From the IMG/VR virus record IMGVR_UViG_3300035522_000061, positions 1 to 64,000 of that record: a DNA stretch of 64,000 bases; one strand, written 5' to 3'. Position numbers and translations under genes: made by a program. Positions 5,469 to 55,515 of this stretch are shown in pieces. This DNA comes from a virus (lineage: Duplodnaviria; Heunggongvirae; Uroviricota; Caudoviricetes). The notes beneath the pieces were generated by a model. The model did not search any database. It saw nothing but the letters and a program-made list of their open reading frames with translations, and had not been told where the DNA came from. Numbering within the stretch: the first letter of the stretch is position 1; each line of letters starts with the position of its first letter.

Positions 5469-5503
5469 ATGGAGTTCATTTTTTAGTTTTTAGTTGGTTT
5501 GCG

Positions 5504-5666: not shown

Positions 5667-5724
5667 GAATACTTACAGCAATTAATATTAAAATTAAATA
5701 TCTATATAAAGTATTCTGTAAGTT

Positions 5725-5797
5725 GCAGCATTCGTCTAGTTGGTTAGGACGTCAGATTTTCATTCTGGAAACTAGAGTTCAAATCTCTAACGCTGTA
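5725..5797 (+). tRNA. tRNA-Glu (anticodon TTC)
   Basis: Acceptor GCAGCAT/ACGCTGT. Anticodon stem TCAGA/TCTGG with loop TTTTCAT. T-arm TAGAG-TTCAAAT-CTCTA. Confidence 0.5.
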
Positions 5798-6045: not shown

Positions 6046-6117
6046 GCGGAATGGAGAAGTGGTATCTCGCTTGGCTCATAACCAAGAGATCGCAGGTTCG
6101 AATCCTAGCTTCCGCTA
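6046..6117 (+). tRNA. tRNA-Met/fMet (anticodon CAT)
   Basis: Acceptor GCGGAA/TTCCGC. Anticodon stem CTTGG/CCAAG with loop CTCATAA. T-loop GGTTCGAATCC. Confidence 0.5.
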
Positions 6118-7372: not shown

Positions 7373-7445
7373 GGGATATGGTGTAACGATTAGCACTAGA
7401 CATTTTGGATGTTTCAGATTTGGTTTGAATCCAAATATCCCAACA
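7373..7445 (+). tRNA. tRNA-Gln (anticodon TTG), tentative
   Basis: Acceptor GGGATAT/ATATCCC. Anticodon stem AGACA/TGTTT with loop TTTTGGA. Non-canonical T-loop TTTGAAT. Confidence 0.4.
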
Positions 7446-7480
7446 TTAGATTAAAAATATTAATTTTAATTTTTTAAATT

Positions 7481-7621
7481 ATGAAAAAGTTATTGTTAGT
7501 TTTTGGTGTTGCGCTTCTTATGAGTGCTTGCTGTAATGGTTCTTCTACAGAATCTAGTACTGATTCAACAGATTCCGTTGTTGTTGATTCTGTAGCAGTT
7601 GATTCAACTGTTCAACTCTAA
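7481..7621 (+). CDS. putative small lipoprotein (46 aa) inside the tRNA array
   Basis: MKKLLLVFGVALLMSAC has a lipobox Cys. The mature region is a Ser/Thr/Asp-rich repeat. The ORF is below the track threshold. Confidence 0.35.
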   Translation: MKKLLLVFGVALLMSACCNGSSTESSTDSTDSVVVDSVAVDSTVQL

Positions 7622-11923: not shown

Positions 11924-13852
11924 ATGTTACAAACTAGTTTTATTGTTGCAGGAATTCTTGTAGTTCTTGTAGTGTTGACCGTAATTGGTCTAATGTCGCG
12001 TTATCGTAGATGCGCAAGTGATGAAATTCTTGTAGTATTTGGTAAAGCTGGAAAGAAAACCCAGATTAATCCAGAAACTGGCAAGAGCGAAACAGTTGTT
12101 TTGCCTTCTAAAATTATTCATGGCGGAGGTACATTTGTATTTCCGATTATTCAAGATTGGCAAAAAATGTCTTTAACTCCTATACAGATTCAAACTTCTG
12201 TAGTTGGAGTATCTAGCCAAATGATTAAAGTAACTATTCCTGTAACATTAACTACTGGTATTGGTACTACTCAGGAGCTTATGCAAAATGCTGCTAGTCG
12301 TTTCTTAAATGCTGAATTAGAAGAAATTGCTAATCAAATTAAGGATATTCTTATTGGTGAAATGCGTAGTCTTATGGCTACTATGACCATTGAAGAAATT
12401 AATGCTGATCGCGGTAAATTCTTAGGTAAAGCAAAAGAGAACATTGAAACTGAAATTAATAAAGTAGGTTTCACTATTATTAATATTAATAATGCAGATA
12501 TTTCTGATGATGCAAATTATATTAAGAATTTAGGTAAGAAAGCAGCCACTAAAGCTCAAGCTCAAGCAGAAGCAGATATTGCAGAAGAAGAAAAGAAGGG
12601 TCAAATTCAAATTGCCGAAACTAACAAGGAAAGGGAAATTGCTGTTGCTAGTGCTGAAAAAGAGCGTGCTACTCAAGTAGCTCAGACTCAGCAAGAGCAG
12701 GAAGTAAGAGTAGCTGAAATTAATCAGGATAAGCAAATTAAATTGGCAGAAGCTGAAAAGATTAAGACTACTGGAGTCGCAGAACAACAAGCTGAACAGG
12801 CTGCTAATGTAGCTAATGCTAAAACTAAAGCAATAACTGCACAAGCAGAAGCAGATGCGATTAAAGAAGCTAATGTTGCTAAAGCAGAATCTGAAGCTGA
12901 ATCAGCTAAAGCAGCTAGAAAAGCAGAAGCTATTGCGTCAGTAGCCAAGTCTAATTCAGAAGCAGAATCTGCAAAAGCAGAAGCAGAAGCTCAGAAACAA
13001 ATTAGAATTGCTAAAGCACAGCAAGAAAAAGAAGCTGAAACTCAAAAAGCAATTAATGACCAGCAAGCTAAAGTTGCAGAGTATGAATCTACTAAGAGAC
13101 AGAAAGCAGCAGAAGCTAATAAGAAAGCTGGAGTAGCAGAGCAACGCGCAACTATTGAAGTAGCACAAGCTAAAGGAGAAGCAGCCAAAGCAGAAGCAGA
13201 AGCAATAAAAGTTGCTGGTACTTCTAAAGTAGAGGCTCAAATGTCAATTGCTAAAATTGAACAAGAGAAACAAATAGAAGTAAACGAAGCTAAAGCTTTA
13301 GCAGAACAAGCTAAATTGAATGCTGAAGTTATTGTTCCAGCTGAAACTGAGAAGGAGAAAATTCGTATTGAAGCTGAAGCGATTAAACAAAAAGCTATTC
13401 TAGAAGCACAGGCAGAAGCAGAAGCTATTCGAACTAAAGCTTATGCTGAAGCAAATGCTACTCAAACTAAGTTAGAAGCAGAAGCAGAGGGTACTAAAAA
13501 GAAACTTTTAGCAGAAGCAGAGGGTAAAAGAGCTTCTTTAATGGCTGAGGCAGATAAGGTACAAGCTATTGAGATGGCTCCTGCGCTTGCTGTTAAGCAA
13601 ATGATTGAAGCTGGATTGACTCCTGAACTTGTTGTAAATTATAAAACAGTAGATCAATTAGCAGATATTGCTACAGCACAAGCTAAGATATATGAGCATA
13701 TTCAGCTTGGTCAAGTTACTGTTTATGGTGGTGAAAATACTGCTGGTAACTTTATGTCTAATATGGCTAAGAATCTCAGTCCTGCAATGGATATTCTTGG
13801 TAATTTGCCTATTGCAGATACTGTTAAGAAAGTGTTTGGAAGTACTAAATAA
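11924..13852 (+). CDS. flotillin-like SPFH/band-7 protein with long Ala/Glu/Lys-rich (EA-repeat) coiled coil
   Basis: N-terminal TM helix, SPFH domain (ILVVFGKAGKK...IPVTLTTGIG...MTIEEINADR), then ~350 aa of AEAEA/KAEAE repeats. The C-terminus resembles bacterial FloT/YqiK. Confidence 0.75.
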   Translation: MLQTSFIVAGILVVLVVLTVIGLMSRYRRCASDEILVVFGKAGKKTQINPETGKSETVVLPSKIIHGGGTFVFPIIQDWQKMSLTPIQIQTSVVGVSSQMIKVTIPVTLTTGIGTTQELMQNAASRFLNAELEEIANQIKDILIGEMRSLMATMTIEEINADRGKFLGKAKENIETEINKVGFTIININNADISDDANYIKNLGKKAATKAQAQAEADIAEEEKKGQIQIAETNKEREIAVASAEKERATQVAQTQQEQEVRVAEINQDKQIKLAEAEKIKTTGVAEQQAEQAANVANAKTKAITAQAEADAIKEANVAKAESEAESAKAARKAEAIASVAKSNSEAESAKAEAEAQKQIRIAKAQQEKEAETQKAINDQQAKVAEYESTKRQKAAEANKKAGVAEQRATIEVAQAKGEAAKAEAEAIKVAGTSKVEAQMSIAKIEQEKQIEVNEAKALAEQAKLNAEVIVPAETEKEKIRIEAEAIKQKAILEAQAEAEAIRTKAYAEANATQTKLEAEAEGTKKKLLAEAEGKRASLMAEADKVQAIEMAPALAVKQMIEAGLTPELVVNYKTVDQLADIATAQAKIYEHIQLGQVTVYGGENTAGNFMSNMAKNLSPAMDILGNLPIADTVKKVFGSTK

Positions 13853-14343: not shown

Positions 14344-14429
14344 GGCGAAATGATGAAAGTTGGTAAACATAGGGGACTTAAAATCCCCCGATCATTATGA
14401 TCTTGCGGGTTCGAGTCCCGCTTTCGCTA
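14344..14429 (+). tRNA. tRNA-Leu (anticodon TAA), type II
   Basis: Acceptor GGCGAAA/TTTCGCT. Anticodon stem GGGGA/TCCCC with loop CTTAAAA. Long variable-arm hairpin GATCAT-TATG-ATC. T-arm GCGGG-TTCGAGT-CCCGC. Preceded by the palindrome GTATTGCAATAC. Confidence 0.7.
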
Positions 14430-21450: not shown

Positions 21451-22071
21451 TTGAAACATTTAACTCTAAGTTTAGAAGAGGAAATAAATCTCTTGGACAA
21501 ATATAATTTAACTCCTAATGAATTCCTAATAGTTAAAGTTCTTCTATTATTGCAAGATAATGAAGAAGAAGAATTGTTTTATAATTTAATAACAACTATA
21601 AAACATATTGGGCTTGCATTGCGAGATATTCTTATTAGTTTACAAGAGAAGGGTGTAATTTTAAAAACATATAAAGTACCATCTGAAGGAACTAAATTTG
21701 ATCCTTTTGCTATTCCTATTAATAAGAATTTTGTAAAGCATTTTTATAAATGTTCTTTTGAAATAGGTAAAGAATTATTTGATAATTATCCTCAGTTCGC
21801 TACTATTAACGGTTGTGTAGTACCCCTACGTACTGTTGCTAAGAAGTTTGATTCATTAGAACAAGCTTATCTTAAATATGGTAGAGCAATTGGATTTAAT
21901 CCAGAAAAGCATGAGAAAATTATAGAATTAGTTAAATGGGCAAAAGACAATAATATCTTAAATTGTTCTTTAGCTTCATTTATAGTTAATGAAGGGTGGC
22001 ACGATTTAGAGGCTCTCAGAAATGGTAAAGATGTGGCAAATATTAATTATGATGCAGTTAGAATTTTATGA
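21451..22071 (+). CDS. hypothetical protein (upstream partner of the helicase, possible loader)
   Basis: 206 aa. ATGA-coupled to the DnaB-like gene. Confidence 0.35.
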   Translation: MKHLTLSLEEEINLLDKYNLTPNEFLIVKVLLLLQDNEEEELFYNLITTIKHIGLALRDILISLQEKGVILKTYKVPSEGTKFDPFAIPINKNFVKHFYKCSFEIGKELFDNYPQFATINGCVVPLRTVAKKFDSLEQAYLKYGRAIGFNPEKHEKIIELVKWAKDNNILNCSLASFIVNEGWHDLEALRNGKDVANINYDAVRIL

Positions 22072-22847
22072 TTGCAGAATCATTACTTCATCAGATTGAA
22101 GTAGGTAGATTAGGTAAGCAGTGGGGATACTCAATGGGTCTCCCAAAATTAGAAGAGATAATAGATGGAGTATCTAGAGGAATTTATACTTTAGTATTTA
22201 GTCCTACTGGTAGTGGTAAGAGTTCACTTGCTTTATATTCTTATGTATATAGACCATTAATGGAACATCTTGATGATGGTAATTTTAAAGTTAGTTATTT
22301 TTCATTAGAGATGAGCGCCGAAATGATCTATGCTAAGATATTAAGTATGTATATCTTTGAAACTTATGGAATAGAGTTGTCTACTGGAGAACTTCTTTCT
22401 AGAAAACGTAATTATAAATTATCTGATGATTATTATAAAATAACTCAAGAATGTTTACCTTGGTTACAGAAGGTTGAAAAGATTTTAGTTATTTATGATA
22501 AAGCATTAAATGCTAGTAGTTTATATACAATCTTAATGGCTCAACTAGAAAAAGATGGCAAGTTTGAAGAAACAGATGGTAGAAAAATATATCATCCTAG
22601 TAATGAAGAACTTACTCATTTAGTAGTTATAGACCATTTAAGTTTAGTAAGAAGGTCTAATGGACGTACTCTAAAAGAAGAAATGGATTTAATATCCTCC
22701 TATTTGGTAACATTAAGAAATATATGTAAAATTAGTCCGCTTGTAATTATGCAAGCAAATCGAAATTCTACTTCTATGGATAGAAGAAAAGAAGGATTAA
22801 ATAACTTAAGAATTGATGATACCAAAGATACTGGTGCGCCAAATTAG
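22068..22847 (+). CDS. DnaB-like replicative helicase RecA-fold domain, exon 1 (gene interrupted)
   Basis: Walker A SPTGSGKSS, Walker B HLVVIDHLS and MQANR motif. The ORF stops just before the conserved arginine-finger region, which reappears ~250 nt downstream. Confidence 0.6.
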   Translation: MIAESLLHQIEVGRLGKQWGYSMGLPKLEEIIDGVSRGIYTLVFSPTGSGKSSLALYSYVYRPLMEHLDDGNFKVSYFSLEMSAEMIYAKILSMYIFETYGIELSTGELLSRKRNYKLSDDYYKITQECLPWLQKVEKILVIYDKALNASSLYTILMAQLEKDGKFEETDGRKIYHPSNEELTHLVVIDHLSLVRRSNGRTLKEEMDLISSYLVTLRNICKISPLVIMQANRNSTSMDRRKEGLNNLRIDDTKDTGAPN

Positions 22848-23091
22848 GGCTAGACGCACCTAAAACTCCGTTAAACGGGGAAACTCCTAAATAGGACAAT
22901 CCCGTGCTAAATCCTTTAGAAATAAAGGAAAACGCCTAACGACTAGAAGTGATGCTAAACAGGTAGAGCTGTAGCTATAAAATCTTCCACGAAAGCGGGG
23001 CACTGCTTACATTTGTAAGTTAAAGAGATAGTCTGAACTATATAGTAATATATAGAAGTATAAGATAAAGAACTTATACGATAACATTATG
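22837..23091 (+). mobile_element. putative group I intron in the DnaB-like helicase gene (no homing endonuclease; boundaries +/-10 nt)
   Basis: ~255-nt GC-richer non-coding gap between two halves of one helicase. The downstream half has no ATG. Confidence 0.4.
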
Positions 23092-23398
23092 CAGCCCAGG
23101 ATTCGGAAATAATTATATCTATTTTTAATCCTCATAGAGAAAAATTAGCTAGTTATAGAGGATATGACATAAAACAGTTAGGTGCTAATTTTAGAAGTAT
23201 AACAGTTTTAAAGAATAGATATGGAGAATCTGATGTAGAAGTAGGATGTGCCTTTTATGGTGCAGTTTCAATATTTTCAGAACTTCCAAAACCAGATGAA
23301 ATTTATGATTATGCAAAGTATAAAAGTTCCGAATGGCTTTTAGCTAATAGTAAAGAAGATACAGAAGAAAAACAATCAAAACACAATTTTGTATTATA
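23085..23398 (+). CDS. DnaB-like helicase exon 2 (C-terminal segment, no start codon)
   Basis: Open frame AAQDSEIIISIFNPHRE...KNRYGESDVEVGCAFYG aligns with DnaB (IEQDADLIMFIYR...KQRNGPIGTVRLTF). It contains no Met. Confidence 0.5.
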
Positions 23399-23671
23399 AT
23401 GGCAGCGCAGACAATATTAATTTTAGGTGAAAGTGGACAAGGTAAAAGTTCTAGTTTAAGAAATTTAAATGCGGAAGAAACATTTATTATTTCTACTACT
23501 TCTAAACCTCTTCCTTGGAGAGGTTGGAAAAAGCACTTTAAGAAATGGGATCCTAAAACTAGTCCAGAGGGTAATTGGTATCAAACTTCTAAATCTTCTA
23601 ATATAATTACTATTGTTAAATATGTTAACTCTAAGAGACCGGAGATAAAGAATATCGTAGTCGATAAGTAA
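23399..23671 (+). CDS. P-loop NTPase-like small protein (possibly a truncated or interrupted gene)
   Basis: ILILGESGQGKSSS is a Walker A motif. The ORF is only 90 aa. A GIY-YIG homing endonuclease follows. Confidence 0.35.
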   Translation: MAAQTILILGESGQGKSSSLRNLNAEETFIISTTSKPLPWRGWKKHFKKWDPKTSPEGNWYQTSKSSNIITIVKYVNSKRPEIKNIVVDK

Positions 23672-23944: not shown

Positions 23945-24871
23945 ATGCAACAAAATAATTATTCATTTTATGTTCTTAAATCGGACATATCGCCAGACGA
24001 AATTCGTTATGTAGGAGTAACTACTCAAAAATTAGATAGAAGATTTTCTCAACATAAATACTGTGCTAACCATCCAGAAAAAAGAGGATTACCTGTTCAT
24101 AAATGGATATACTCTGTATATAAAAATGGGGGCTCAGTTATTATAGAGAAAATAGACGAATGCTCAGAAGAAGCTTGGGAAGCTAGAGAGCAATACTGGA
24201 TTAGTTATTATAAAAACCTTGGACATAAATTAATGAATATTGACAAAGGAGGAAAAGGTGTAATAACTAAAGAAAAAAGAAGTATTGATTCTCTTACAAG
24301 AGCAGGAAATGCCCATAAAAAACCGATAACAGCATTTAATTTAGATGGCACTAAATATAAAGATTTTGATTCTATTACTGAAGCAGCAGCTGAATTAAAC
24401 GGATCAATAACTAATATAGATAGTGTATTAAATGGTAATTCTAAATCAGCTTGTGGTTTTATATGGAAATATAAAACAGAAGAAGAAAAAATAGATTCTT
24501 ATAAAAAAGAATCTATTGGAATTAAAATATATCAGTTTGATTTATATGGAAATTTATTAAGAGAATTTGAAAGTAAAAAGTGTGTAATTCAATTCCTTAA
24601 TAAAAATAGCCACCACGCGTTGGATAAAGCCATAAAAAATAAAACTGAATATAAAAGGTTCTTTTGGGCATTAACTGATAAAATAAATATTTCCGAGTAT
24701 GTATCTCCATTTAAATATAAGATTACTAAAAATGGAGAGGAAGTAATTCAATTAATAGAACAAAAAGAAGTTGCTGAGTATTTATGTATATCTAAATCTG
24801 CTGTTAATCAGTGGTTAAAGAAATATAACGGATCGTTTTCATGTAATAATTATATTGTTGATACAATCTAA
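23945..24871 (+). CDS. GIY-YIG homing endonuclease
   Basis: N-terminal YSFYVL...IRYVGVTTQ...R, then FSQHK and N motifs. C-terminal repeated DNA-binding modules (NUMOD/IENR-like GFIWKYK, HTH). Confidence 0.65.
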   Translation: MQQNNYSFYVLKSDISPDEIRYVGVTTQKLDRRFSQHKYCANHPEKRGLPVHKWIYSVYKNGGSVIIEKIDECSEEAWEAREQYWISYYKNLGHKLMNIDKGGKGVITKEKRSIDSLTRAGNAHKKPITAFNLDGTKYKDFDSITEAAAELNGSITNIDSVLNGNSKSACGFIWKYKTEEEKIDSYKKESIGIKIYQFDLYGNLLREFESKKCVIQFLNKNSHHALDKAIKNKTEYKRFFWALTDKINISEYVSPFKYKITKNGEEVIQLIEQKEVAEYLCISKSAVNQWLKKYNGSFSCNNYIVDTI

Positions 24872-24919: not shown

Positions 24920-25339
24920 TTGCAATATACCATGTCTTTCGAATACATGGATCGTAGGTCTGAAACTGGATTTACTAAGTTTTCTGATATTGGTGGAGAC
25001 TTTACTGATCTTTTAAGAGTTGCAGATATTATTAGAGATGATATTAAACTTATCTTCACAGGACACAGTGAGAATGTCGGAGATGCTATGAACCCACACT
25101 GGAGTTTGAAAACAATTGGCAAAATGGTTAATGAAAAGATTACTCCAGAAGGTTTGTTTACTTATGTTTTCTACGCGATGGCTATACCAGGAGATAATAA
25201 AATGGAATATAAATTTCTTACTAATACAGATGGTGAGCATGTCGCTAAAACTCCTCTAGGAATGTTTGAAGAACAACTAATAGATAATGATGTTGCAGAG
25301 ATTATTAAGATTATAGACGCATATAACGAAGGAGAATAA
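24920..25339 (+). CDS. hypothetical protein
   Basis: 139-aa ORF that the track starts at a TTG. The frame is open upstream. Confidence 0.4.
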   Translation: MQYTMSFEYMDRRSETGFTKFSDIGGDFTDLLRVADIIRDDIKLIFTGHSENVGDAMNPHWSLKTIGKMVNEKITPEGLFTYVFYAMAIPGDNKMEYKFLTNTDGEHVAKTPLGMFEEQLIDNDVAEIIKIIDAYNEGE

Positions 25340-31180: not shown

Positions 31181-32485
31181 TTGACAGGGTGGTATCTTCG
31201 GGTATCACCCTATTTTTGTATATATATGAAACAAACAACATTAAAGAAATATCTGGGTATTTTAAAGAGTGTAAAGAAAAGTGGTAAAACTCTAAAACAA
31301 TATTGTGATGCACATTCTGATATGTCTTATAAATCAATAGTGCAAACAATATCTAAAATTAGAGAATTACATGAAGAAGAATCTAAAATAGTTTCAGATA
31401 TTTTGACACTTTATAGTCAGGTGACTAAACAAACACAGACAATTACTAATTGTGAAATTGAAACAGATGCAGTAGCTGAGACATCTTGTGATAGAGATGA
31501 GAATGGACATATTCAGAATTATAGGTATCAAATATTTAGAAAAAACAAAACTCCATTGTGTGGAAGATTGTCCAGAGAAGAAATGGATACTATTTATAGA
31601 TTGTATTCATATTATGGAGATTCTTTAACTCAAAGAGTTATTTCTAGATATTTTGTAGAATTATCTCTAATAGACTTTAAGAGAATTCTTCGTGCATTTA
31701 ATATTACTAAAGCTTCCTCTCCTTTCGCTCCCCATATGTTTGAAGAAAAATCCGAGGAGGAGCTAAGAGAAATACAGCTTCGTGAAAAGGAAAACAGTTT
31801 CCTTAGAAAAGCTGAAGAAGACAATATTAGAAATACGGAGAAACTTCTTAAAAAGTATGCTCAAGAAAATATAGAACTGAAAAAGAAAATAGAAAAATAT
31901 ACAGAATTTTCAATTTCAATTCCTAAAGATTTAGAGCCTTTACATTTTACAGAGAGTTCTCCCTCTACGGGATTGAACTTAAATTTATATTTATCTGATA
32001 TTCATCTAGGTGCTAAAATAAATAGTGGAGCATTGTATCAAGAAAATATAAATTATGGGTATAATGAAGCTAAACGTCGTCTAGTTACTATCTTGCATAA
32101 ATTAGAATGTTTTGAATCATTATTTGATACCATAAATGTAGTACTTTTAGGAGATAATGTTGATTGTCCTGGATTCTTTGGCAAAACTGCCAGATTAGAT
32201 CACGATATGCCAGAAAATATGGATCCTCGTGAGCAAGCTAATAGTTTTATTAAACTTATTATGTGGTTTGTGGAATCTTTGTATGTTTCCAAAATAGGTT
32301 CTAATATAAATATATATTCAGTTCCATGCGGAAATCATGGAGGAAATTTTGAGTATATGTGCAATAAGGCATTAATGGCAAGTATAAATGCTAAATTTCC
32401 AGATGCTAAAACTACTATGTGGGAAGAATTCTACGGAGTATTTAAACAAAGTGGTCATACCTTTGTCTGTGCCCATGGTAATTAA
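31181..32485 (+). CDS. calcineurin-like metallophosphoesterase (Mre11/SbcD-like), exon 1
   Basis: Motifs LSDIHLG, LLGDNVD and CGNHG. The ORF ends in VCAHGN exactly at the last phosphoesterase motif and is followed by a LAGLIDADG ORF. Confidence 0.5.
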   Translation: MTGWYLRVSPYFCIYMKQTTLKKYLGILKSVKKSGKTLKQYCDAHSDMSYKSIVQTISKIRELHEEESKIVSDILTLYSQVTKQTQTITNCEIETDAVAETSCDRDENGHIQNYRYQIFRKNKTPLCGRLSREEMDTIYRLYSYYGDSLTQRVISRYFVELSLIDFKRILRAFNITKASSPFAPHMFEEKSEEELREIQLREKENSFLRKAEEDNIRNTEKLLKKYAQENIELKKKIEKYTEFSISIPKDLEPLHFTESSPSTGLNLNLYLSDIHLGAKINSGALYQENINYGYNEAKRRLVTILHKLECFESLFDTINVVLLGDNVDCPGFFGKTARLDHDMPENMDPREQANSFIKLIMWFVESLYVSKIGSNINIYSVPCGNHGGNFEYMCNKALMASINAKFPDAKTTMWEEFYGVFKQSGHTFVCAHGN

Positions 32486-33837
32486 AATCTAAAAATTAAT
32501 TTTGTTTTATAAAACATATTTCGTATATTTATATGGAAATAGTAATTAATATATAGAAATATGAAATTTTATAAAAATTTAAATCTTGATGATCTTATTA
32601 ACTTACTTTTAAGAGGTGAAAAAACTCTTTCAGAAGTAACTAGAAATTATAAAGATACAGAACAAATAATTATAAATAGATTTAAGGAATTAGGATTTTA
32701 TAAAATAGAAAAAGGAAAGAATATAGTTTCCTGTGCTAAATATAAATATGCAGCTGATAAATATGTTGAATTGGGAGGTTTTCCTAATACAAATATTAAA
32801 GAATTAGCGTCAGAATTTAAAATTAGTGCTAATGAACTATCTGACTATATTTCTACTTATTATCCTGATATAAAAATTTTAGGAAAAGCGAATTTTAATG
32901 AATATATATTTGATTCAATTGATACTGAAGAAAAAGCGTATTGGCTAGGATTTTTATTTGCTGATGGAACTATTAGTTCTTCACCTTTAAGAAAAGAAGT
33001 TAAAACTCAATATCAAATTGAATTATCTTTATCTATCAAAGACTTGGAACATCTTGAAAAGTTTGCTAAATTTTTAGAATATAAGCAATCTTTATATAAA
33101 GATGAAATTAGGTGTAGATTAAGTGTATATTCTAAACATTTATGGAATATTTTAAATGTTAATGGCTGTACTCCTAAGAAATCATTAACTTTGAAATTTC
33201 CTAGAATTGAATTATTTAAATCTAAAGAATTGATATATCATTTTATTAGAGGATATTGGGATGGGGACGGCTGTTTAACTTGGAATGATAAAGAGCATAC
33301 TCGCCCAGAAGTTTCTGTCTTAGGAACAGATGAAATATTAAATTCTATTATTAAATTTATTTGTTCTAAAACACCTACTTTACATATTAATCACCCAGAA
33401 CAACAAAGTATTATTAAATATTTTAATTTAACTGGAAAGGACGCCTATGAAAGTATGTGCAAACTTTATAAAAATTCTACAATATATTTATCGAGAAAAT
33501 ATGAAAAATTTTTAGAATATTGCCGTCTATATGAGGAATCATATAGATAATTAGAAACCAAAATCGGGGAATACTGAGATGTTAATCCCGAGGTAATTAC
33601 AGAAATTAAAAAGTCTGTAACACCGTAACGCGTAGGACTTGAAACTTGTAAAAGAATAAAATAGTCCCAAGAGTGGTTTCCATCCCAACTGAAATAAGTG
33701 GATGAAAAGGTACGCTGAGCTATAGTGAATAGGAAACTATAGAAGTCAAGATAAAAAACTTGGCGATAACATAACTGAAAGACGACCAGTTCTGTAAAAA
33801 GGGACTTCCTCTCAACTTAGATGAAAAGTCTAAGGTA
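32486..33837 (+). mobile_element. putative group I intron carrying a LAGLIDADG homing endonuclease gene
   Basis: Homing endonuclease ORF flanked by non-coding sequence. The 290-nt stretch after the endonuclease gene is GC-richer and structured-looking. The downstream exon opens in frame without an ATG (the track start is TTG). Confidence 0.4.
32561..33550 (+). CDS. LAGLIDADG homing endonuclease
   Basis: Two LAGLIDADG motifs (LGFLFADGTI and RGYWDGDGCL). Confidence 0.7.
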   Translation: MKFYKNLNLDDLINLLLRGEKTLSEVTRNYKDTEQIIINRFKELGFYKIEKGKNIVSCAKYKYAADKYVELGGFPNTNIKELASEFKISANELSDYISTYYPDIKILGKANFNEYIFDSIDTEEKAYWLGFLFADGTISSSPLRKEVKTQYQIELSLSIKDLEHLEKFAKFLEYKQSLYKDEIRCRLSVYSKHLWNILNVNGCTPKKSLTLKFPRIELFKSKELIYHFIRGYWDGDGCLTWNDKEHTRPEVSVLGTDEILNSIIKFICSKTPTLHINHPEQQSIIKYFNLTGKDAYESMCKLYKNSTIYLSRKYEKFLEYCRLYEESYR

Positions 33838-34074
33838 TTGTTATATGAATGGCTAGATTCTAGAGGGATTACAGGTGATAATATTCATATTGTTAAAGGT
33901 GATTTGCATTCTAATAATATGAATTCTTGCAAGAAATTTACTTATCGTAATGTGTTAAGTTTATTTGGAGCATCTGATTATTCAAATTATAATTTCTCTA
34001 GAAATTCTTATGGACTTTCTTATGATTTGATAATTAATGATAATTTAATTAGTGGAACTTTTGAAAATATTTAA
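33838..34074 (+). CDS. metallophosphoesterase exon 2 (C-terminal segment)
   Basis: 78-aa ORF immediately after the intron-like element. It has a non-ATG start. Confidence 0.35.
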   Translation: MLYEWLDSRGITGDNIHIVKGDLHSNNMNSCKKFTYRNVLSLFGASDYSNYNFSRNSYGLSYDLIINDNLISGTFENI

Positions 34075-42287: not shown

Positions 42288-43499
42288 ATGAAAGTAACAA
42301 AAAGAAACGGTGAGCCCGCTGAGTTTAATAGAAGTAAAATTGTAAATGCAGTTTCAGCAGCATTTAAAGAATGTGGGTACGAAAGTATCCCTAAAACTAT
42401 TGAGGAAATTGTAGATGAAGTCCAGATTTGGGATAATATCAGTATTGAAGATATACAAGATCAAGTTGAAGAACTTTTAATGGATTATGGATATTCAGAT
42501 GTAGCTAAAGCTTATATTCTTTATAGAGAAGAACGTAAGATGATCCGTGCTGAAAAAGATAAACTCATTAAAGGTATTAAATCTAAACTTGAAGCTTCTA
42601 ATGTAAAAAATCAAAATGCTAATATTGATGAGCATTCATTTGGTGGACGTATTGGCGAAGCAGGTAGAGTTGTAACTAAAGATTATGCTCTTAATTATTG
42701 TATGTCTGAAATGGCTAAGCATAATCATGAAAATAATGAAATATACATTCATGATTTGGATTCTTACGCTGTAGGGATGCACAACTGTTTGAGCATACCA
42801 GTAGATGACTTACTTGCTAACGGGTTTAAGCTAAAGCAAACTGATGTTAGACCTGCTAAGAGTATTAATACAGCATTTCAATTATTAGCTGTAATATTCC
42901 AAGTACAAAGTTTACAACAATTTGGTGGTGTATCTGCAACTCATTTAGATTGGACTATGGTTCCCTATGTAAGACTATCTTTTAATAAGCATTATAGAAC
43001 TGGATTGAAGTATATTGATCACATTCGTAATGAAAAATACGATCAAACAGATTTGTCTATAGAAGATAGTTTGTATAAAGAACATCCTAATTCTTATGAA
43101 TATGCTTTGGATATGACTAAACGAGAAATTCATCAAGCTGTTGAAGGTATGTATCATAATTTAAATACTCTACAAAGTAGAAGTGGTAATCAATTACCTT
43201 TTACTTCTATTAATTATGGTACTTGTACACAACCTGAAGGACGTCTTATTAGTCTAGCTTTACTTGAAGTAAGTAAGAATGGTATTGGTAGCCATCATAG
43301 CACTCCGATTTTTCCGTGCTGTATCGTTCAATTAATGAAAGGTGTTAATCGAAAACCTGGAGATCCGAATTATGATATATTCCAAGAAGCTACTAAGGTT
43401 ACGAGTCTTAGGTTATACCCTAATTATGCCAATGTAGATTGGTCTGGTAATGAAGGGTATGATATAAACGATCCTCGCACTTATTTCAGTACAATGGGT
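42288..43499 (+). CDS. nrdD: anaerobic ribonucleoside-triphosphate reductase NrdD, exon 1 (ATP cone plus N-terminal catalytic region)
   Basis: ATP-cone start MKVTKRNGEPAEFNRSKI. The ORF-track ORF runs to 43505 (...YFSTMGK*). The proposed exon ends after STMG at 43499. Confidence 0.7.
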
Positions 43500-43792
43500 A
43501 AGTGAAAACTGCAGCCCATTTAAAATCTCTTTAACCCTGCTTAAGGGGTGTTTCTATTTAAGCGTAGAAGCTAACGGTTAGGTCTTATTATATAATTGCA
43601 GTGTAAATAATAAGATGAGACCGTGCTAATGTACTTATAGTTATATTAGTACAGAATGTGTATCGACTAAGGGTGATGAGTGTAGCCCTGTAGGATCGGA
43701 GATAAGCACCGATTCCAAACAAGAGACAACTCTTTGTTGTGAAACAAGGAATGAACATATAGTCAGTTCCGATGGTGACATTGGGTAAAATG
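43500..43792 (+). mobile_element. putative group I intron in nrdD (no ORF)
   Basis: 293-nt GC-richer insert. Splicing after ...ATGGGT (U at -1) to TGTAGA... (intron ends in G) gives STMG|CRTANGW. T4 nrdD/sunY is a known intron-containing precedent. Confidence 0.5.
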
Positions 43793-44785
43793 TGTAGAAC
43801 TGCGAATGGCTGGGATATTAATGGTTTTGGTCAACTTAAAGATGGTAGAGGTAATATCTGTCCTGTTACAATCATACTTCCTACACTTGCAATGAATTCT
43901 AAACTGCAAGCTATATCTAATATGGATAATGCAGATGTAAATATCAAGGATTTAGTATGGAATAAATTTATTGAATTGTTGGATACTAAGATTCATGAAG
44001 CAAAAGATATGCTAATTGAACGATTTGATTGGATATGTAGTCAAGATGCTGCATCCGCTAAGTTTATGTATCAAAATAATGTAATGTATGGATATAAACC
44101 TGAAGAAGGTATCCGTTCAGCATTAAAACATGGTACTTTAGCTATTGGTCAATTAGGATTATCAGAAGCTTTGAGAATTATTTTCGGTAAAGACCACACT
44201 GATTCAGAAATTATGGATAAAGCTAAAGAATTAGAAGCTCTCTTTAAGAAGAGATGTAGTGAATTCAAAGAAGCTTATAAACTTAATTTTGGTGTTTACT
44301 ATACTCCTGCTGAAAATCTGTGTTATACAGCAATGCAGAAATTTAAGAAGCAATTTGGCGAAGTTCCAGGAATTACAGAACGTGAGTTCTTTACTAATAG
44401 TATGCACGTACCTGTATGGCATGAATGCACTCCATTTGAGAAAATTGAAATTGAATCACAGCTTACTGGTTTCAGTAGTGCAGGTTGTATAACTTATGTT
44501 GAATTACCTGCTTCTACTAAGCATAATCCAGAAGCTATTGAAGAGATTGTTAATTATGCAATGGATCATGATATTCCATACTTTGCCATTAATGTACCAA
44601 ATGATTCTTGTCAAGACTGTGGTTATATTGATGAATTGAATGATACTTGTCCTATGTGCGGTAGTAAAAATATCAAACGATTACGTCGTGTAACAGGCTA
44701 CCTTACCGGAGACTACAAGACGTCATTTAACGTTGGTAAGCAACAGGAGGTCGAACAACGAGTTAAACATATAAAAGAATTATAA
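43793..44785 (+). CDS. nrdD: NrdD exon 2 (glycyl-radical C-terminal half)
   Basis: Glycyl radical motif RRVTGYLTG near the C-terminus and Zn-ribbon CQDCGY...CPMCGS. The track ORF begins at 43772 inside the putative intron. Confidence 0.7.
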   Translation, partial: CRTANGWDINGFGQLKDGRGNICPVTIILPTLAMNSKLQAISNMDNADVNIKDLVWNKFIELLDTKIHEAKDMLIERFDWICSQDAASAKFMYQNNVMYGYKPEEGIRSALKHGTLAIGQLGLSEALRIIFGKDHTDSEIMDKAKELEALFKKRCSEFKEAYKLNFGVYYTPAENLCYTAMQKFKKQFGEVPGITEREFFTNSMHVPVWHECTPFEKIEIESQLTGFSSAGCITYVELPASTKHNPEAIEEIVNYAMDHDIPYFAINVPNDSCQDCGYIDELNDTCPMCGSKNIKRLRRVTGYLTGDYKTSFNVGKQQEVEQRVKHIKEL

Positions 44786-45930: not shown

Positions 45931-46972
45931 AAAATTAACAAATTTTAAAAATTTTTAATTGGCAATCTGAGGTAATCATATTATATTTGTAATAATAAAA
46001 TTCAAATATATATGAGTACTAGAAAATACTATTTTAATGAAAATTATTTTAATGAGTTAAAAACTCATGAACAAGCATATATATTAGGCTTTATATATGC
46101 AGATGGGTATAATCGAGAAGATTGTCTAGAATTAGATCAATTAGGTGAAAGAATTGATATATTAGAAAAAATTAATAAAGCATTAAATTCCGAATATCCT
46201 ATAAAGAGTTACAGTCCCAATATTTATAGACTTACTTTTAATAGTGTAAAATTATGTTCCGATTTGATAAAACTAGGAGCAATCCGCAATAAATCTTTAA
46301 CTCTTACTTTTCCAACTTTTATTCCTATTGAATTAATGTCTTCTTTTATTTTAGGATATTTTGACGGGGATGGTTGTGTTTGGAACGGTAAACGTAAAGT
46401 AATGACTGTAAAAAATGAAAAGAAGCCTGGAGAATATAGAAATAGAATAGTTCATAATGTAAAATTTACTTTTACTGGCAATTCTGAATTTATAAGTTCT
46501 TTACAGGATTTTTTAATTCAACAGGGTATTGTTTCTAAAAAAACTAAATTAAATTTTAGTAAAGCGAAGAATCCTAACACTCCTACGTGTGATAAAGTTT
46601 GCACAATGGAATATTCTGGTAGAAAACAAATGCGAAATTTGTATGAATATATGTATTCTAAATCACCTATTTGGTGTAATGAAAAAAAATTAAAATTTGA
46701 ACAAATATTTTGTGCGTCTAAGGAGAAATCCTTAGAGGACACCTCGTTAATTGCTGGAACGTCTGAGATGATAATCAGCAGCCAAGCTTCAGATAATATA
46801 TCTGTTGAAGGTTCATCGACTATCCCTGAAATGGGAGTAGAATCAAGTGATTCGAAATGCGAGGCTCCTAACTCTGTAAAAGAGAAGGATGAAGATATAG
46901 TCAGTTCTGCAACAAAATGAAGTTGCAGCGTTAAAATTGGGATTAATTTAACGAATTAATCTAAACAAAAAG
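45931..46972 (+). mobile_element. putative group I intron with LAGLIDADG homing endonuclease inside the phosphatase gene
   Basis: Splicing after ...AACCAT (U at -1) to GATAATCAAGAA... (intron ends in G at 46972) joins RGNH|DNQELGYSW, recreating the GNHD/E motif. The downstream frame is open from 46973 with no ATG. Confidence 0.5.
46012..46920 (+). CDS. LAGLIDADG homing endonuclease
   Basis: LGFIYADGY and LGYFDGDGCV motifs. Ser/Glu-rich C-terminal tail. Confidence 0.7.
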   Translation: MSTRKYYFNENYFNELKTHEQAYILGFIYADGYNREDCLELDQLGERIDILEKINKALNSEYPIKSYSPNIYRLTFNSVKLCSDLIKLGAIRNKSLTLTFPTFIPIELMSSFILGYFDGDGCVWNGKRKVMTVKNEKKPGEYRNRIVHNVKFTFTGNSEFISSLQDFLIQQGIVSKKTKLNFSKAKNPNTPTCDKVCTMEYSGRKQMRNLYEYMYSKSPIWCNEKKLKFEQIFCASKEKSLEDTSLIAGTSEMIISSQASDNISVEGSSTIPEMGVESSDSKCEAPNSVKEKDEDIVSSATK

Positions 46973-48465: not shown

Positions 48466-49668
48466 ATGCTTAAGAAATATCTTTTAGGAAAATCTTCTAC
48501 TGGTAAATTCAGATATGCGGTAGTAGAATGTAGTGAGGAATGGGAAGATACTGGATATGTTATCCAAAGAAGCTATGGTCAGGTTCGGGGAAAGAATACT
48601 CTTTCCCCAGCCATTGTAGTTTCTCAAACTAAACAGAAAAGAAATTGGAAAGAACAATATACTTTACAATTTAATTCTGAAGTAAAGAAATTCTTGGATA
48701 AAGGATATAAAGAAGTAGAAAAACATCCTAACGAGTATACTGATGAAGAATTAAATGAAATATATGGAGATGTTAAAACTAGAGGAGATGGTATAATTAA
48801 GCCTATGCTAGCCAAGCAAGCAGATAAAGTGTCTGCCAAAACTTTTGATAAAGACTATTATGGGTCGCGAAAAGTAAATGGAGTTAGATGTTTAATTTAT
48901 TATAAAGATGGTAAAATTCAAACAGCTTCCAGAGGTGCTGTAAATTATAATATAGCTATTATTCATATTATTCAGCATCCTTTGGTAGAAGAATTCTTTA
49001 AAAATCATCCAGAAGCTATTTTAGATGGAGAAATCTTTAAAATGGGATACACTCTTAATAAAATTAGTGGTATATGTAGAAGCCAATCTACTGTAAATGA
49101 TGGTAAAGATTTAGAGTTTTATTGGTACGATATAGTCGATCTGGAGAAGCCTTTTACTGAAAGGTACAAACTTATGCAAGAGTGGTCAAAAGAGCTCCAG
49201 CTGTCTGAATTTGACCCATATAGGCATTATTCTGAGGACATACTGCATATCCAATTTTTACCACAAGTAGAAATTACAGGATATGATAATATGAAAAAAT
49301 TACATGATTCCTATGTAGCAGAAGGATGGGAGGGCTTAGTTATACGATTAGCTTCTTCTACTTATAAACCAGGAGCCAGAGGAAATGATTGGATCAAAAT
49401 AAAATGCTATTTTGATGATACTTATAAAGTTATAGGATATGAACTTGGTCTTAGAGGTTCTGAAGATATGGTATTTATTTGTGAAATGAAAGATGGTAAA
49501 ACTTTTAAAGCTTCTCCAATGGGATCTAGAGAAATTAAACAAGAATATGTAGATAATTTTGAAGAAAAATATAAAAATCAATTAGGAGATTGTAAATATT
49601 TTGAAATATCCCCATACGGTATTCCTCAGCAACCTAAATTTATAGCATTTCGTTGGGATTTAAACTAA
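48466..49668 (+). CDS. ATP-dependent DNA ligase
   Basis: Motif I KVNGVRCL (KxDG variant), EGLVIRL (motif IV) and DWIKIK (motif V). OB-fold C-terminus. Confidence 0.75.
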   Translation: MLKKYLLGKSSTGKFRYAVVECSEEWEDTGYVIQRSYGQVRGKNTLSPAIVVSQTKQKRNWKEQYTLQFNSEVKKFLDKGYKEVEKHPNEYTDEELNEIYGDVKTRGDGIIKPMLAKQADKVSAKTFDKDYYGSRKVNGVRCLIYYKDGKIQTASRGAVNYNIAIIHIIQHPLVEEFFKNHPEAILDGEIFKMGYTLNKISGICRSQSTVNDGKDLEFYWYDIVDLEKPFTERYKLMQEWSKELQLSEFDPYRHYSEDILHIQFLPQVEITGYDNMKKLHDSYVAEGWEGLVIRLASSTYKPGARGNDWIKIKCYFDDTYKVIGYELGLRGSEDMVFICEMKDGKTFKASPMGSREIKQEYVDNFEEKYKNQLGDCKYFEISPYGIPQQPKFIAFRWDLN

Positions 49669-49833: not shown

Positions 49834-50562
49834 GTGGAGCCTTTTTCAAATCAGGAAAAAAATTATGTTACGATTGTTTGTAAAGATCATGGTGAGTTTA
49901 GAACTACCCCAAGAACATTTTTAGATGGAAAATATGGATGTCCTACCTGTGCTAGATTTTTAAAAGGGAGAAATAGTAAAAGTGATTTAAATAATATTGT
50001 TACAAATTCTTTACCAGATATGTTAATTATTGAATCTCCCATAATTGTATTAAAAGAAAAAATTATAGGAACAGTTTACTGTTTTATAAATACTATTAAT
50101 AATAAATTATATATAGGAGAAACAGTAAAATCTAATTATGAGGAACGTTTCAGTGAGCATAGAAATAAAGCAGAAAAAGGTAATAATTATTTTTACAAAG
50201 CTATAAGAAAGTATGGCTGGGATAAATTTGATAAAGTAATATTGTTTCAAACAGACGTTCTAGATAATACGCCGGAGAACAAAAAATTATTGAATGATAT
50301 TGTTAACGAAAAAGAAATATATTATATTAATAAATATAAAACTTCTGATCATAAATTTGGTTATAATTTAACTAATGGAGGTGATGGAATTGTTGGCTAT
50401 AAGCATTCAGAAAAAACTCTAAAAACTTTATCAGAAACTCATTCTGGAGAAAAACATTGGAAATATGGCAAAAATAATTATGGAGGTTGCGCAATTTTAC
50501 AATTTGATCTTGATTTTAATTTAATTAAAGAATGGGACAGTATGAAAGAAATAGAGCGTTAG
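49834..50562 (+). CDS. GIY-YIG homing endonuclease (N-terminal part)
   Basis: VYCFINTINNKLYIGETV...YEERFSEHRN is a GIY-YIG module. C-terminal NUMOD-like repeats. Ends at an in-frame TAG immediately before the next ORF. Confidence 0.6.
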   Translation: MEPFSNQEKNYVTIVCKDHGEFRTTPRTFLDGKYGCPTCARFLKGRNSKSDLNNIVTNSLPDMLIIESPIIVLKEKIIGTVYCFINTINNKLYIGETVKSNYEERFSEHRNKAEKGNNYFYKAIRKYGWDKFDKVILFQTDVLDNTPENKKLLNDIVNEKEIYYINKYKTSDHKFGYNLTNGGDGIVGYKHSEKTLKTLSETHSGEKHWKYGKNNYGGCAILQFDLDFNLIKEWDSMKEIER

Positions 50563-53154: not shown

Positions 53155-54444
53155 ATGATTTATTTAGTAAGTAAAGATAAAAAACTATATTCTCCAGAAA
53201 GATATAGAGAAGTAGACTTTAAGGAGGCTATGGATATTTTATATCCTTTAAAAGAGGTACAATTAGATACAGAAACTAAAGGATTAGATTGTTTTACGAA
53301 GGAATTACTTACTTTGCAATTAGGGTGTACTGAAAATCAAGTTGTATTTGATTGGAGAACTATAAGTCCTTCTGAAAAGTCTATTTTAAAAGAATATCTA
53401 GAGTCTGATAGAGTGTTCTTGGGGCATAATATAATGTTTGATTTAACCTTTTTATATAAACAAAATATTTGGCCCAATCATGTTTATGATACTATGGTAG
53501 TAGAACAATTAATATATTTAGGGTATCCTAGAGTATTAGCTACCGAAATAGTACAGACATATGGAATTAAACCTTCTTGTTATGAATATATTGCTCCCGA
53601 CGAAAAAACTAAAGAACATTGGGAATTATCTTATTCTTTACGAGCTACTGCAAAAAGAAGACTTGGAGTAGATATTGACAAAACTGTTCGAGGAAAAATT
53701 ATAAATGAAGGTTTAACAGAAGATGTTGTAGTATATGCTGCTGGGGATGTAATGTGGCTAGAGCCTATAAAAGAAAAGCAACTAGAAGAATTATCTACTC
53801 AAGATCTTTTAAAGGCTGCAGAATTTGAATGTGAATTTATTAAATTTTTAGCATATGTAAAATTCTGTGGAGTTCATTTGGATATTTCTAAATGGAAAGA
53901 AAAAATGAAAAATGATCAAGCTTCTTTAAGAGAAGCTGAGTCACAATTAAATAAATTTGTTATAGATTTAGATGCTAAAGAATATTTATATAGATATGCT
54001 AAAAATAAAAAAGAAAAAGAAAAATTAGTAGCATTAGGATTTATTCGATTTCCCGAAAAAGATGATTCTATGGAGTGTTACAGATATAAAATAAAAGGAA
54101 AATTTGTATCTATAAATTTACAATTATCCTTATTTGAAGAATGTAATGACATAGGGCCACAATGCACTATAAATTGGAGTAGTTCTACTCAAGTTATAAA
54201 ATTATTTGAACTTCTTGGGATACAAGTTACAACTTTTGATAAAAAGACTAAAAAAGAAAAGAAGTCCATTAATGCTACGTTAATTAGTTCTCAAGTTGAT
54301 AAATTTCCTATTCTTGCTATATTTTTAAAGTATCAAGCCGCCTCAAAAGTTGTATCTACTTATGGTCAAAACTGGTTAGACGCTATTAATCCAGTAACTG
54401 GAAGAATTCATGTTGATCTACATTCTATTGGAACAGATACAGGT
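53155..54444 (+). CDS. family A DNA polymerase, exon 1 (3'-5' exonuclease plus N-terminal polymerase part)
   Basis: Exo I QLDTETKGLD, Exo II HNIMFDL and Exo III YAAGDV. Ends ...VTGRIHVDLHSIGTDTG. The track ORF stops at 54459. Confidence 0.7.
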
Positions 54445-55515
54445 GAAAAATTTCCATAAATTACAATTTTTCTATTAATTTTATTTCTAAGGTATTAACT
54501 ATTTTAATCTGTCCTAAATAATTATTATATTTGCATATAATAAATTTAAATTAAATATATGTATTATGATTAAAAAATGGACTGAGTAGGAAATAGAAAA
54601 TTTAGTATCTGAGTATAACTCAGGTAAAGATACTGGAGAATTAGCAGTTATGTTTAATTGTTCTAAGTATCAAATTAGAAATAAATTAAAAGATAAGGGG
54701 ATTGTTTTAAGAAAAACTGCCCTTAATCGAACTTATAAATCGAAAGCTATTGTTCCGTTACAAGCATGGACAGATAAAATAGGCAGTCCAGAATTTGACT
54801 ATTTTATTGGAATACTAGCCTCGGATGGTTGTATTGTTGATACTTGTACAGCTTTAGAAGTTAAAGATTTAGAATTAATAGAAAATTATAATAAATTTTT
54901 AGGTTTTCGATGTAATATTAATTCAAGAAAATCTAAAGTTAATGGCAATGTCTATTATAATATTAAGTATAAAAATAAAGAAATAGTTAACTTTTTATCT
55001 GAATATGGTATAGTGCCAAGAAAATCTAACATACTAATGCTTCCATATATAAATTGGAATATATTATTAGGAATTTTTGATGGAGATGGTAGTATTACTA
55101 AAGATAAAAGATATGAGTGCTGTTTTAAATTTACTATTACTTCTGGAAGTATTAATTTTATTAATCAAGTTAAGAAGTTTTTAGAAAAAGAGAATATCTC
55201 TCCAAATATACAAGAATATAATACAGATAGTGGACATTGGTATAATATATATGTAACTAAAGGTGAACATATATATAAAATATATTGTAATTTATATAAA
55301 GACTCCTCTTTCTTTCTGTCTAGAAAGAAAGAAAAATTCGGCCCCTTAGTAGAGAAATTTGCTAAGTGTAACTCCGTAAATTCAGTTAATGGGAGGGAAA
55401 ACCAGAAGACTGAGCCAAGCCTTAATATTGAGGAAGGTGCAGAGACTAGAAACGGAGAACCTAAGTAATAAGTAATTGTTATAAGGTTGAGGTATAGTCC
55501 GGCATGGAAATGTTG
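54445..55515 (+). mobile_element. putative group I intron with LAGLIDADG homing endonuclease splitting the DNA polymerase gene
   Basis: Splicing after ...GATACAGGT (U at -1) to CGAGTATCTAGT... (intron ends in G) yields GTDTG|RVSSGGG..NLP, restoring the Pol I TGR(L)SS...QNIP motif. Confidence 0.5.
54650..55468 (+). CDS. LAGLIDADG homing endonuclease
   Basis: IGILASDGCI and LGIFDGDGSI motifs. Confidence 0.7.
   Translation: MFNCSKYQIRNKLKDKGIVLRKTALNRTYKSKAIVPLQAWTDKIGSPEFDYFIGILASDGCIVDTCTALEVKDLELIENYNKFLGFRCNINSRKSKVNGNVYYNIKYKNKEIVNFLSEYGIVPRKSNILMLPYINWNILLGIFDGDGSITKDKRYECCFKFTITSGSINFINQVKKFLEKENISPNIQEYNTDSGHWYNIYVTKGEHIYKIYCNLYKDSSFFLSRKKEKFGPLVEKFAKCNSVNSVNGRENQKTEPSLNIEEGAETRNGEPK

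Follow-up and report, generated by a model that had tools for sequence, protein, structure and literature searches.

A probable mobile group I intron with a LAGLIDADG endonuclease gene in the metallophosphoesterase gene of a crAss-like phage

Positions 1 to 64,000 of IMG/VR record IMGVR_UViG_3300035522_000061 (Caudoviricetes), referred to here as the window, contain the metallophosphoesterase gene of a crAss-like phage (the crAss 'MPP' gene), which is interrupted at 32480-33777 by what is very probably a mobile, self-splicing group I intron of IA-like type. The corrected gene model is of one metallophosphatase of 516 amino acids (aa), with residues KDDQ...SKV included, rather than of separate proteins of 434 and 78 aa. 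A first-pass annotation made from the sequence had suggested that a group I intron carries a LAGLIDADG gene in one of its peripheral loops, and this suggestion is now supported by colinear homologues, by a 5' exon that ends in U and an intron that ends in G, by a covarying secondary structure and by a covariance-model link to an intron that Rfam model RF00028 detects.

The three open reading frames (ORFs) on which the suggestion was based were confirmed at their coordinates, all on the plus strand. Thus, an ORF of 434 aa at 31181-32485 ends, by direct reading of the sequence, in ...FVCAHGN*, an ORF of 329 aa at 32561-33550 follows it downstream and a TTG-initiated ORF of 78 aa occupies 33838-34074. 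The joined exons had 828 relatives, most of which were uninterrupted proteins of 510-525 aa with 100% query coverage and identity of up to 72%. In alignments, uninterrupted homologues read ...FVCAHG|KDDQFCKKGLPLNLD... across the junction and ...HTFVCAHG-KDDQFCKKGLPLNLDDKSKVMLYEWLD... over it, and their N-termini agreed with a start of exon 1 at ATG 31226. By tblastn, exon 1 ends at 32479 and exon 2 begins at 33778, where the first codon is AAA (Lys), and genes of Cellulophaga phages annotated as 'calcineurin-like phosphoesterase' aligned across the exon junction. Exons 1 and 2 were contiguous in 17 related loci or contigs, which read CAYGGN|AARGA. Since the uninterrupted homologues and tblastn fix the exon ends at 32479 and 33778, the intron corresponds to 32480-33777; the insert placed earlier at 32486-33837 is real, with ends that were off by 6 nucleotides (nt) on the 5' side and by 60 nt on the 3' side. 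The principal features of the locus are as follows.

31226-32479, plus strand: exon 1 of the metallophosphoesterase (crAss 'MPP') gene, 418 codons (MKQTTLKKY...FVCAHG), with motifs I-IV.
32480-33777, plus strand: probable group I intron (IA-like), 1298 nt, with the predicted 5' splice site after U32479 and the 3' splice site after G33777.
32483-32485, plus strand: in-frame TAA stop codon, read directly, which terminates translation of unspliced mRNA (...HGN*).
32561-33550, plus strand: LAGLIDADG homing endonuclease gene, 329 aa, two motifs, within the P1 loop.
33778-34074, plus strand: exon 2, 98 codons plus stop (KDDQFCKK...GDLHS...TFENI), with motif V and without a start codon of its own.

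The insertion separates Gly418 (GGU) from Lys419 (AAA) immediately downstream of the motif IV histidine, and the 'N' and TAA that follow ...CAHG in the 434-aa ORF are the first intron bases. Removal of 1298 nt would be expected to join ...TGTGCCCATGGT to AAAGACGACCAG (CAUGGU-AAAGAC). Exon 2, for which a lack of similarity to phosphoesterase C-termini was the finding that could have overturned the suggestion, was colinear with the C-termini of phosphoesterase homologues both by alignment and by tblastn.

The beginning of exon 2 was informative in its own right. The 60 bases at 33778-33837 are coding sequence of exon 2 (KDDQFCKKGLPLNLDEKSKV) that is kept in all homologues, and the 78-aa ORF can be read upstream in the same frame without a stop as far as a TAA at 33772-74, giving L-KDDQFCKKGLPLNLDEKSKV-LLYEWLD. 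Among four intron-bearing alleles, substitutions in these first 20 codons were distributed 20:12:66 by codon position, with 52 synonymous versus 22 non-synonymous codon differences, whereas the same comparison of the last 60 intron bases showed no third-position bias. No ATG, GTG or TTG occurs in frame in exon 2 before codon 21 (33838). Translation of the first 20 codons, which offer no possible site of initiation, would therefore require RNA splicing. Because the 60 upstream bases are conserved and evolve as coding sequence, the TTG at 33838, previously read as a non-ATG start, is an artefact of ORF calling and is merely the first start-like codon that an ORF finder could use.

Downstream of the endonuclease ORF, the non-coding, structured part of the intron (33551-33777) measures 227 nt rather than the 290 nt or so first estimated; the description of this stretch as structured and richer in GC was correct. 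Its GC content is 36%, compared with 11% for the 5' untranslated part of the intron, 25% for the endonuclease gene and 30% for the whole window. The unguided minimum free energy (MFE) fold of 33519-33777 was -63.8 kcal/mol (z = -4.5) and regained P2, P3, P4, P6, P7.1, P8, P9 and P9.1. Since RF00028 gave no match, the structure was derived by comparison of the window intron with other members of its family, and the following elements were assigned.

32475-32482, plus strand: 5' strand of P1 (AUGGU|AAU), spanning the 5' splice site and pairing with 33519-33526, with U32479 in a U·G wobble.
33519-33526, plus strand: 3' strand of P1, the putative internal guide sequence AUUGCCGU, in which G33522 pairs with U32479.
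33527-33546, plus strand: P2 hairpin, 8 base pairs (bp) with a GGAA loop; 7 of 8 pairs changed on both sides, 100% of cells paired, also present in the MFE fold.
33554-33560, plus strand: 5' strand of P3 (GAAACCA), pairing with 33674-33680; 6 of 7 pairs changed on both sides.
33564-33591, plus strand: P4-P5 domain (UCGGGG/UCCCGA, AA internal loops, short P5), preceded by J3/4 AAA.
33592-33624, plus strand: P6/P6a hairpin; 7 of 9 pairs changed on both sides, 100% of cells paired.
33628-33634, plus strand: 5' strand of P7, A(C)GCGUA, pairing with 33711-33716; a bulged C is followed by a G-C pair (presumed guanosine-binding site).
33635-33667, plus strand: P7.1 (GGACU/AGUCC; strands 33635-39 and 33663-67), enclosing a small P7.2-like hairpin at 33645-33654.
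33674-33680, plus strand: 3' strand of P3 (UGGUUUC), closing the P3/P7 pseudoknot.
33681-33704, plus strand: P8 hairpin (CAUCC/GGAUG); 5 of 5 pairs changed on both sides.
33711-33716, plus strand: 3' strand of P7 (UACGCU), preceded by J8/7 AAAAGG.
33720-33764, plus strand: P9 (CUAUAGU/ACUAUAG, 33720-42) and P9.1 (GUCAAG/CUUGGC, 33745-64) hairpins.
33765-33777, plus strand: 3' tail GAUAACAUAACUG, ending in the terminal G (omega-G).

The order of strands, with P3-5' before P7-5' before P3-3' before P7-3', is that of a pseudoknot. In P7, the bulged C33629 is followed by the pair G33630-C33715, which is presumed to be the guanosine-binding site. The presence of P7.1 between P7 and the 3' strand of P3 is a mark of subgroup IA and suggests that the intron is IA-like. 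An alternative in which GGACU/AGUCC served as P7, attractive in that AUAGUCC resembles the classical 'S' element, was rejected; this stem encloses only a loop and was assigned to P7.1, while GCGUA/UACGC closes the pseudoknot. Likewise, GUUUUA at 32504, ACCGU at 33621 and ACCA at 33557 were considered as guide sequences but gave way to GCCGU at 33522, for which covariation with the exon was seen.

Support for the structure was provided by an alignment of 11 family members from other contigs, some in the MPP gene and some in other genes, in which 70 pairs in 10 helices were scored. Standard pairs filled 96.6% of the pair cells compared with 33-40% when 3' partners were slid by 1-3 columns, 42 of the 70 pairs changed on both sides and none of 500 shuffles attained any of the observed measures of pairing or covariation. 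For P9.1, five of six pairs changed on both sides with 100% of cells paired, and for P7.1 the corresponding number was four of five, rising to five of five in the wider alignment described below. In every member, U was the last base of the 5' exon and G that of the intron (G33777 was invariant in 11/11), and the U·G pair at the splice site was present in each of the nine members for which the 5' exon was known, with covariation of the neighbouring P1 pairs. Both the exon-guide and the intron-guide parts of P1 covaried across six different host genes, the intron-internal part being represented by AAU/AUU, AAG/CUU, AAA/UUU, AGAGA/UUUCU, UAC/GUA and AAAU/AUUU. A compensatory change was also evident in a copy of the intron within a dUTPase gene (locus L040), where the exon end ACGCU pairs with guide GGCGU, as opposed to GGU with GCC elsewhere.

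Within the family P7 was invariant; it covaried when relatives were included (GCGUA/UACGC, GACUA/UAGUC and GCAUA/UAUGC, the last from the two halves of an intron in locus L030). These comparisons were made with R1, a covariance model of the core only, which was derived from the family without any P7 pairs and used to align 23 hits. In the R1-based alignment P7 was paired in 17 of 17 sequences, and both sides had changed in three of its six pairs, so that every helix of the P3-P9 core is backed by covariation. R1 scored 224 bits at 33552-33777 over the full length of the model, and the window intron agreed with the family consensus at all conserved ribozyme positions. R1 also matched, again at full length, a second region of the window at 22864-23092 (56.6 bits, E = 4e-13), which RF00028 itself matched at 22798-23055 (70 bits).

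22798-23092, plus strand: group I intron in a DnaB-like helicase gene with exon 1 ORF 22068-22847; RF00028 70 bits, R1 56.6 bits.

Because R1 matches this RF00028-positive sequence, the intron of the MPP gene is considered homologous to a recognised group I intron. The two share helices P3-P9.1 and the 3' tail GAUAACA... and appear homologous over the whole core; the helicase intron differs in having a canonical P7 (GACUA/UAGUC), in being detected by Rfam and in having no ORF in P1.

From these elements, the following course of events can be proposed. In the pre-mRNA, the last five exon and first three intron bases (AUGGU|AAU) would pair with AUUGCCGU approximately 1 kb downstream to form P1, in which a U·G wobble marks the site of cleavage. 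The ribozyme, a compact 259 nt (P2-P9.1), would then bind guanosine at P7 and cleave after U32479, and the freed exon would attack after the terminal G33777. The product, ...CAUGGU-AAAGAC..., would encode the 516-aa enzyme with all five metal-binding motifs, whereas unspliced RNA would give only the truncated ...HGN* product.

Several points weigh against this interpretation. The Infernal search proposed with the first-pass annotation was negative, in that RF00028 gave no match to the 32480-33777 region at E ≤ 10, the gathering threshold thus not being reached, and none to related loci, including an ORF-less copy (L033), at E ≤ 1. P10 in the window intron is weak, at 2 bp. The loop over which P1 must close is about 1 kb long, and ribosomes on the endonuclease gene would traverse the guide and P2, either of which could hinder folding. 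The alignment of P1 artificially joins two separated pieces of each intron, and both splicing and ribozyme catalysis are deduced from sequence. The idea that the insert is not a group I intron was weighed after the null result with RF00028 and was rejected after the comparative analysis, and the failure of Rfam to recognise the family is attributed mainly to the re-writing of its most conserved strands.

Other explanations of the interrupted gene can be judged from the same observations. Genes whose products are made in pieces include T4 gp39/gp60 and NrdA of Aeromonas phage Aeh1, which is split by mobE. If the MPP gene were of this kind, a free-standing endonuclease gene would have been inserted, the halves would assemble as polypeptides and the structured RNA would be a relic or a regulatory element. 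Split genes caused by endonucleases are known in phages (PMC3045599), other genes in the window are split by endonuclease ORFs, and the sequence basis of the proposed splicing leaves room for such a view. It is nevertheless improbable, since the first 20 codons of exon 2 are under coding selection without an in-frame ATG, GTG or TTG until codon 21, a stop codon lies two codons upstream of 33778 and a complete, covarying group I core is present, its U·G pair and terminal G coinciding exactly with the protein colinearity points.

Decay of such elements does occur, as indicated by a stop codon that breaks the endonuclease ORF of a related copy (L019), and the window gene might accordingly be a pseudogene, inactivated by an insertion whose core no longer splices. 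This seems very improbable, given that both exons are intact in the window, all invariant residues are kept, the endonuclease ORF is of full length and the ribozyme consensus is fully matched, as reflected in the R1 score over the full model. Readings of the insert as an intein, as a group II intron or as a translational bypass are effectively refuted by the sequence itself. Although inteins and, on rare occasions, group II introns also have LAGLIDADG domains, a TAA interrupts the reading frame here and a separate ATG follows an untranslated stretch of 11% GC; the insert lacks both the GUGYG start and the AY end and has only about 300 nt of non-coding sequence; and at 1.3 kb it is far too long for bypass. 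A self-splicing group I intron remains the reading that we prefer.

The ORF within the P1 loop belongs to the LAGLIDADG family. Its 329-aa product matched Pfam LAGLIDADG_3 at residues 227-251 (28.5 bits, cut-off 22.5) and LAGLIDADG_1 at residues 128-197 (24.2 bits, cut-off 23.1), contained the motifs YWLGFLFADGT and IRGYWDGDGC and matched phrog_4645 (E = 3e-47); a search of PDB by sequence gave no match at E ≤ 0.01. As predicted from these motifs, the protein would act as an endonuclease and would presumably cut intron-less alleles near CAYGGN|AARGAY, leading to homing during co-infection. One such intron-less allele (L001, 5225-5265) reads ...TGTACACATGGTAAAGATGACC..., with CATGGT|AAAGAT. The guide sequence (UGC CGU) and all of P2 fall within the last 12 codons of the endonuclease gene (...E Y C R L Y E E S Y R *), whose stop codon lies directly 3' of P2. 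A more tentative possibility is that placement of the guide and P2 within LAGLIDADG codons (...Cys-Arg...) would physically couple the choice of target to the C-terminus of the endonuclease and would force the two to co-evolve.

Copies of the intron at the identical site of the MPP gene were found in four further contigs (L019, L021, L022/L023 and L020). Endonuclease identity to the window protein was 75% for L022 and only 43% for L021, compared with 74-78% for the host proteins. In L019, as noted above, the endonuclease ORF is interrupted by a stop codon, and close relatives differ in whether they have the intron. These features, namely ORF decay, differing endonuclease identities and patchy presence, fit a cycle of gain, decay and loss of a mobile element. 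In another contig (L017), the MPP gene is uninterrupted at HG|K and a different group I intron of 557 nt (5114-5670), with an R1 score of 28 bits and a canonical P7, occurs at motif III (GNH|GG).

The 16-mer GTACGCTGARCTATAG identified 18 more loci in IMG/VR, at which the element interrupts other genes, mostly at the P-loop codons of ATPases or helicases and once in a dUTPase gene. Insertion nearly always follows a glycine codon, GGU, including those of P-loop G|K(T/S) codons, and follows GCU in L040. The position and content of ORFs varied between loci. Thus, L033 is a natural ORF-less copy of approximately 255 nt in which a GUGA tetraloop, instead of an endonuclease gene, caps P1, so the ribozyme may be regarded as a separable unit; ORFs are located in L5 in L027, L032 and L036; and the loop of P7.1/P7.2 contains an ORF in L029 and a second, small ORF in L019 and L022. 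The insertions in the latter two (L019 6462-6665 and L022 6069-6266) carry an ORF of 65-72 aa of unknown function. A P7.1/P7.2-loop insertion in L040 (approximately 7400-7530, minus strand) includes a sequence that resembles a tRNA T-arm, GGGGTTCGACTCCCC; ARAGORN found no tRNA in this insert. Extreme local intron density was noted in L030 (14 kb of IMGVR_UViG_3300045988_161452), where six separate R1 matches fall within 14 kb and two halves of one intron, at 12381-12503 and 13297-13419, are separated by an ORF.

We tentatively suggest that these introns form a distinct and abundant group IA-like lineage in large crAss-like phages that reference models do not see, with a re-written P7 (GCGUA/UACGC), insertion after GGU and a guide and P2 inside the 3' end of the LAGLIDADG gene as its traits. 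Were this so, Rfam-based counts would systematically underestimate the introns of gut phage genomes. The single Rfam group I model misses an intron family that is common in large crAss-like gut phages, with the result that automated annotation will fragment the genes of these genomes, which are difficult to annotate as it is; the family can be recovered with a covariance model and with the simple motif GTACGCTGARCTATAG.

In the host protein, exon 1 supplies D258xH260, G309D310, G369N370H371 and H417 (motifs I-IV), so that motif IV is present there in addition to motifs I-III recognised earlier, and exon 2 supplies the last motif, as had been predicted, in the form of G459D460L461H462 (motif V, GDLH459-462). 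All five motifs were invariant in 21 homologues, with Asp replacing the first His of GHxH in motif V. By sequence, the assignment as a phosphoesterase is weak. Thus, PHROG 'exonuclease' families phrog_284 and phrog_704 matched the protein at approximately 1e-9, Pfam Metallophos was reached by only three of the 21 homologues and was not significant for the window protein, and profile and sequence searches of PDB yielded nothing significant. An AlphaFold model of the protein had a mean predicted local distance difference test (pLDDT) score of 75.7. With this model, the top six Foldseek matches in PDB were all Mre11 (E 8e-6 to 1e-4, probability 1.0), but with template modelling (TM) scores of 0.27-0.43 and a root mean square deviation of about 7 Å.

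The extension of about 260 aa before motif I, first noted as unusual, is real, and its 245 N-terminal residues (31226-31960, plus strand) are conserved across the phage clade and so are not peculiar to the window copy. The region combines a bundle of four helices with a small beta-sheet, a unit of three helices and a 50-residue helix; the segment FKRILRAFNITKASAPFAPHMFEE...REIQLREKENSFLRKAEED hardly varies, and the model of the region alone had a pLDDT of 79.6. It gave no match in Pfam, to PDB sequences or to PDB folds (best fold E = 0.34).

Comparison with Mre11/SbcD proteins (Thermotoga maritima Mre11, 3THO; T4 gp47) indicated a probable calcineurin-like phosphoesterase fold in common, with motifs I-IV and an aligned motif V, at an identity of 10-13% and the low TM scores given above, with GDLH instead of GHxH and with the clade-specific N-terminus. 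No SbcC/Rad50-like (gp46) partner was found among the 27 larger window ORFs scanned, the genome being roughly 150 kb. The earlier description as Mre11/SbcD-like thus holds at most for the fold and was not borne out for membership in Mre11/SbcD proper; the modelled protein is better described as an Mre11-like metallophosphatase than as SbcD, and its enzymatic role would be that suggested by its motifs. The gene is located in a recombination and replication neighbourhood with a RecE-like exonuclease, a superfamily 1 (SF1) helicase and a Sak4-like ATPase.

Additional interruptions and homing endonuclease genes were noted elsewhere in the window, all on the plus strand. A GIY-YIG-like endonuclease ORF (23945-24871) divides the gene for the Sak4-like single-stranded DNA-annealing ATPase into 23399-23671 and 24920-25339. 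The gene for the anaerobic ribonucleotide reductase NrdD is split (42288-43505 and 43772-44785) by an ORF-less insert of 266 nt at 43506-43771, which has group I-like elements (GGGU|AAGUGAAAACUGCAGCCC, and CGACUAAG ... AUAUAGUC) and was detected neither by Rfam (E ≤ 1) nor by R1. A second LAGLIDADG-type ORF of phrog_4645 at 46012-46920 overlaps at its 3' end an R1 core at 46740-46953 (34.8 bits), so that 46012-46953 has the same layout of ORF then ribozyme as the MPP intron. Pieces of a DNA polymerase gene at 53155-54459 and 55504-56448 flank a third phrog_4645 endonuclease ORF (54650-55468), and this interruption is probably another intron. A GIY-YIG homing endonuclease ORF (49834-50562) lies just downstream of an ATP-dependent DNA ligase gene (48466-49668). 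Four tRNA genes (5725-5797, 6046-6115, 7372-7443 and 14344-14429) are consistent with a large crAss-like phage.

With regard to known systems, the best annotated relatives of the window primase were from crAss-like phages, and contigs that carry the MPP gene measure 153-176 kb; a megablast search of GenBank phages with the MPP locus gave no match. For the crAss-like groups Delta and Zeta, which are gut phages, Yutin et al. 2021 (PMC7886860) report genome sizes of 145-192 kb and as many as 14 introns in one genome, and the window genome is of the same intron-rich kind. In the parts of that account consulted, an 'MPP metallophosphatase' is placed in the crAss-like replication block, introns and inteins sit in core replication genes, introns are recognised via endonuclease domains and LAGLIDADG 'intron-encoded endonuclease' ORFs are noted; those parts describe no ribozyme structure, exact boundaries or intron in the MPP gene (PMC7886860).

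The MPP intron shares its predicted self-splicing group I architecture, including P7.1/P7.2, with the group IA introns of phages (T4 td, nrdB and sunY; Twort; SPO1; Bacillus cereus-group nrdE/nrdF; Bastillevirinae; PMC11878797, PMC2248736). Like them it occupies conserved catalytic-motif codons of a DNA-metabolism gene and has an endonuclease gene in a peripheral loop, and in both cases ORF-bearing and ORF-less copies coexist. Phage introns mostly carry GIY-YIG or HNH endonucleases, in contrast with the LAGLIDADG gene of the MPP intron. Among introns of Bastillevirinae, one LAGLIDADG endonuclease was found. The MPP intron further differs in the location of its ORF, which is in the P1 loop and overlaps the guide and P2 rather than in P6, P8 or P9, in its P7, which is GCGUA/UACGC as opposed to GACUA/UAGUC, and in going undetected by RF00028. 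A homing intron on catalytic-motif codons of a DNA-metabolism gene is thus an expected, ordinary mobile element of a well-known kind, and what is mildly unusual is that its family is invisible to Rfam, that the guide lies inside the endonuclease ORF and that insertion follows GGU (GCU in L040).

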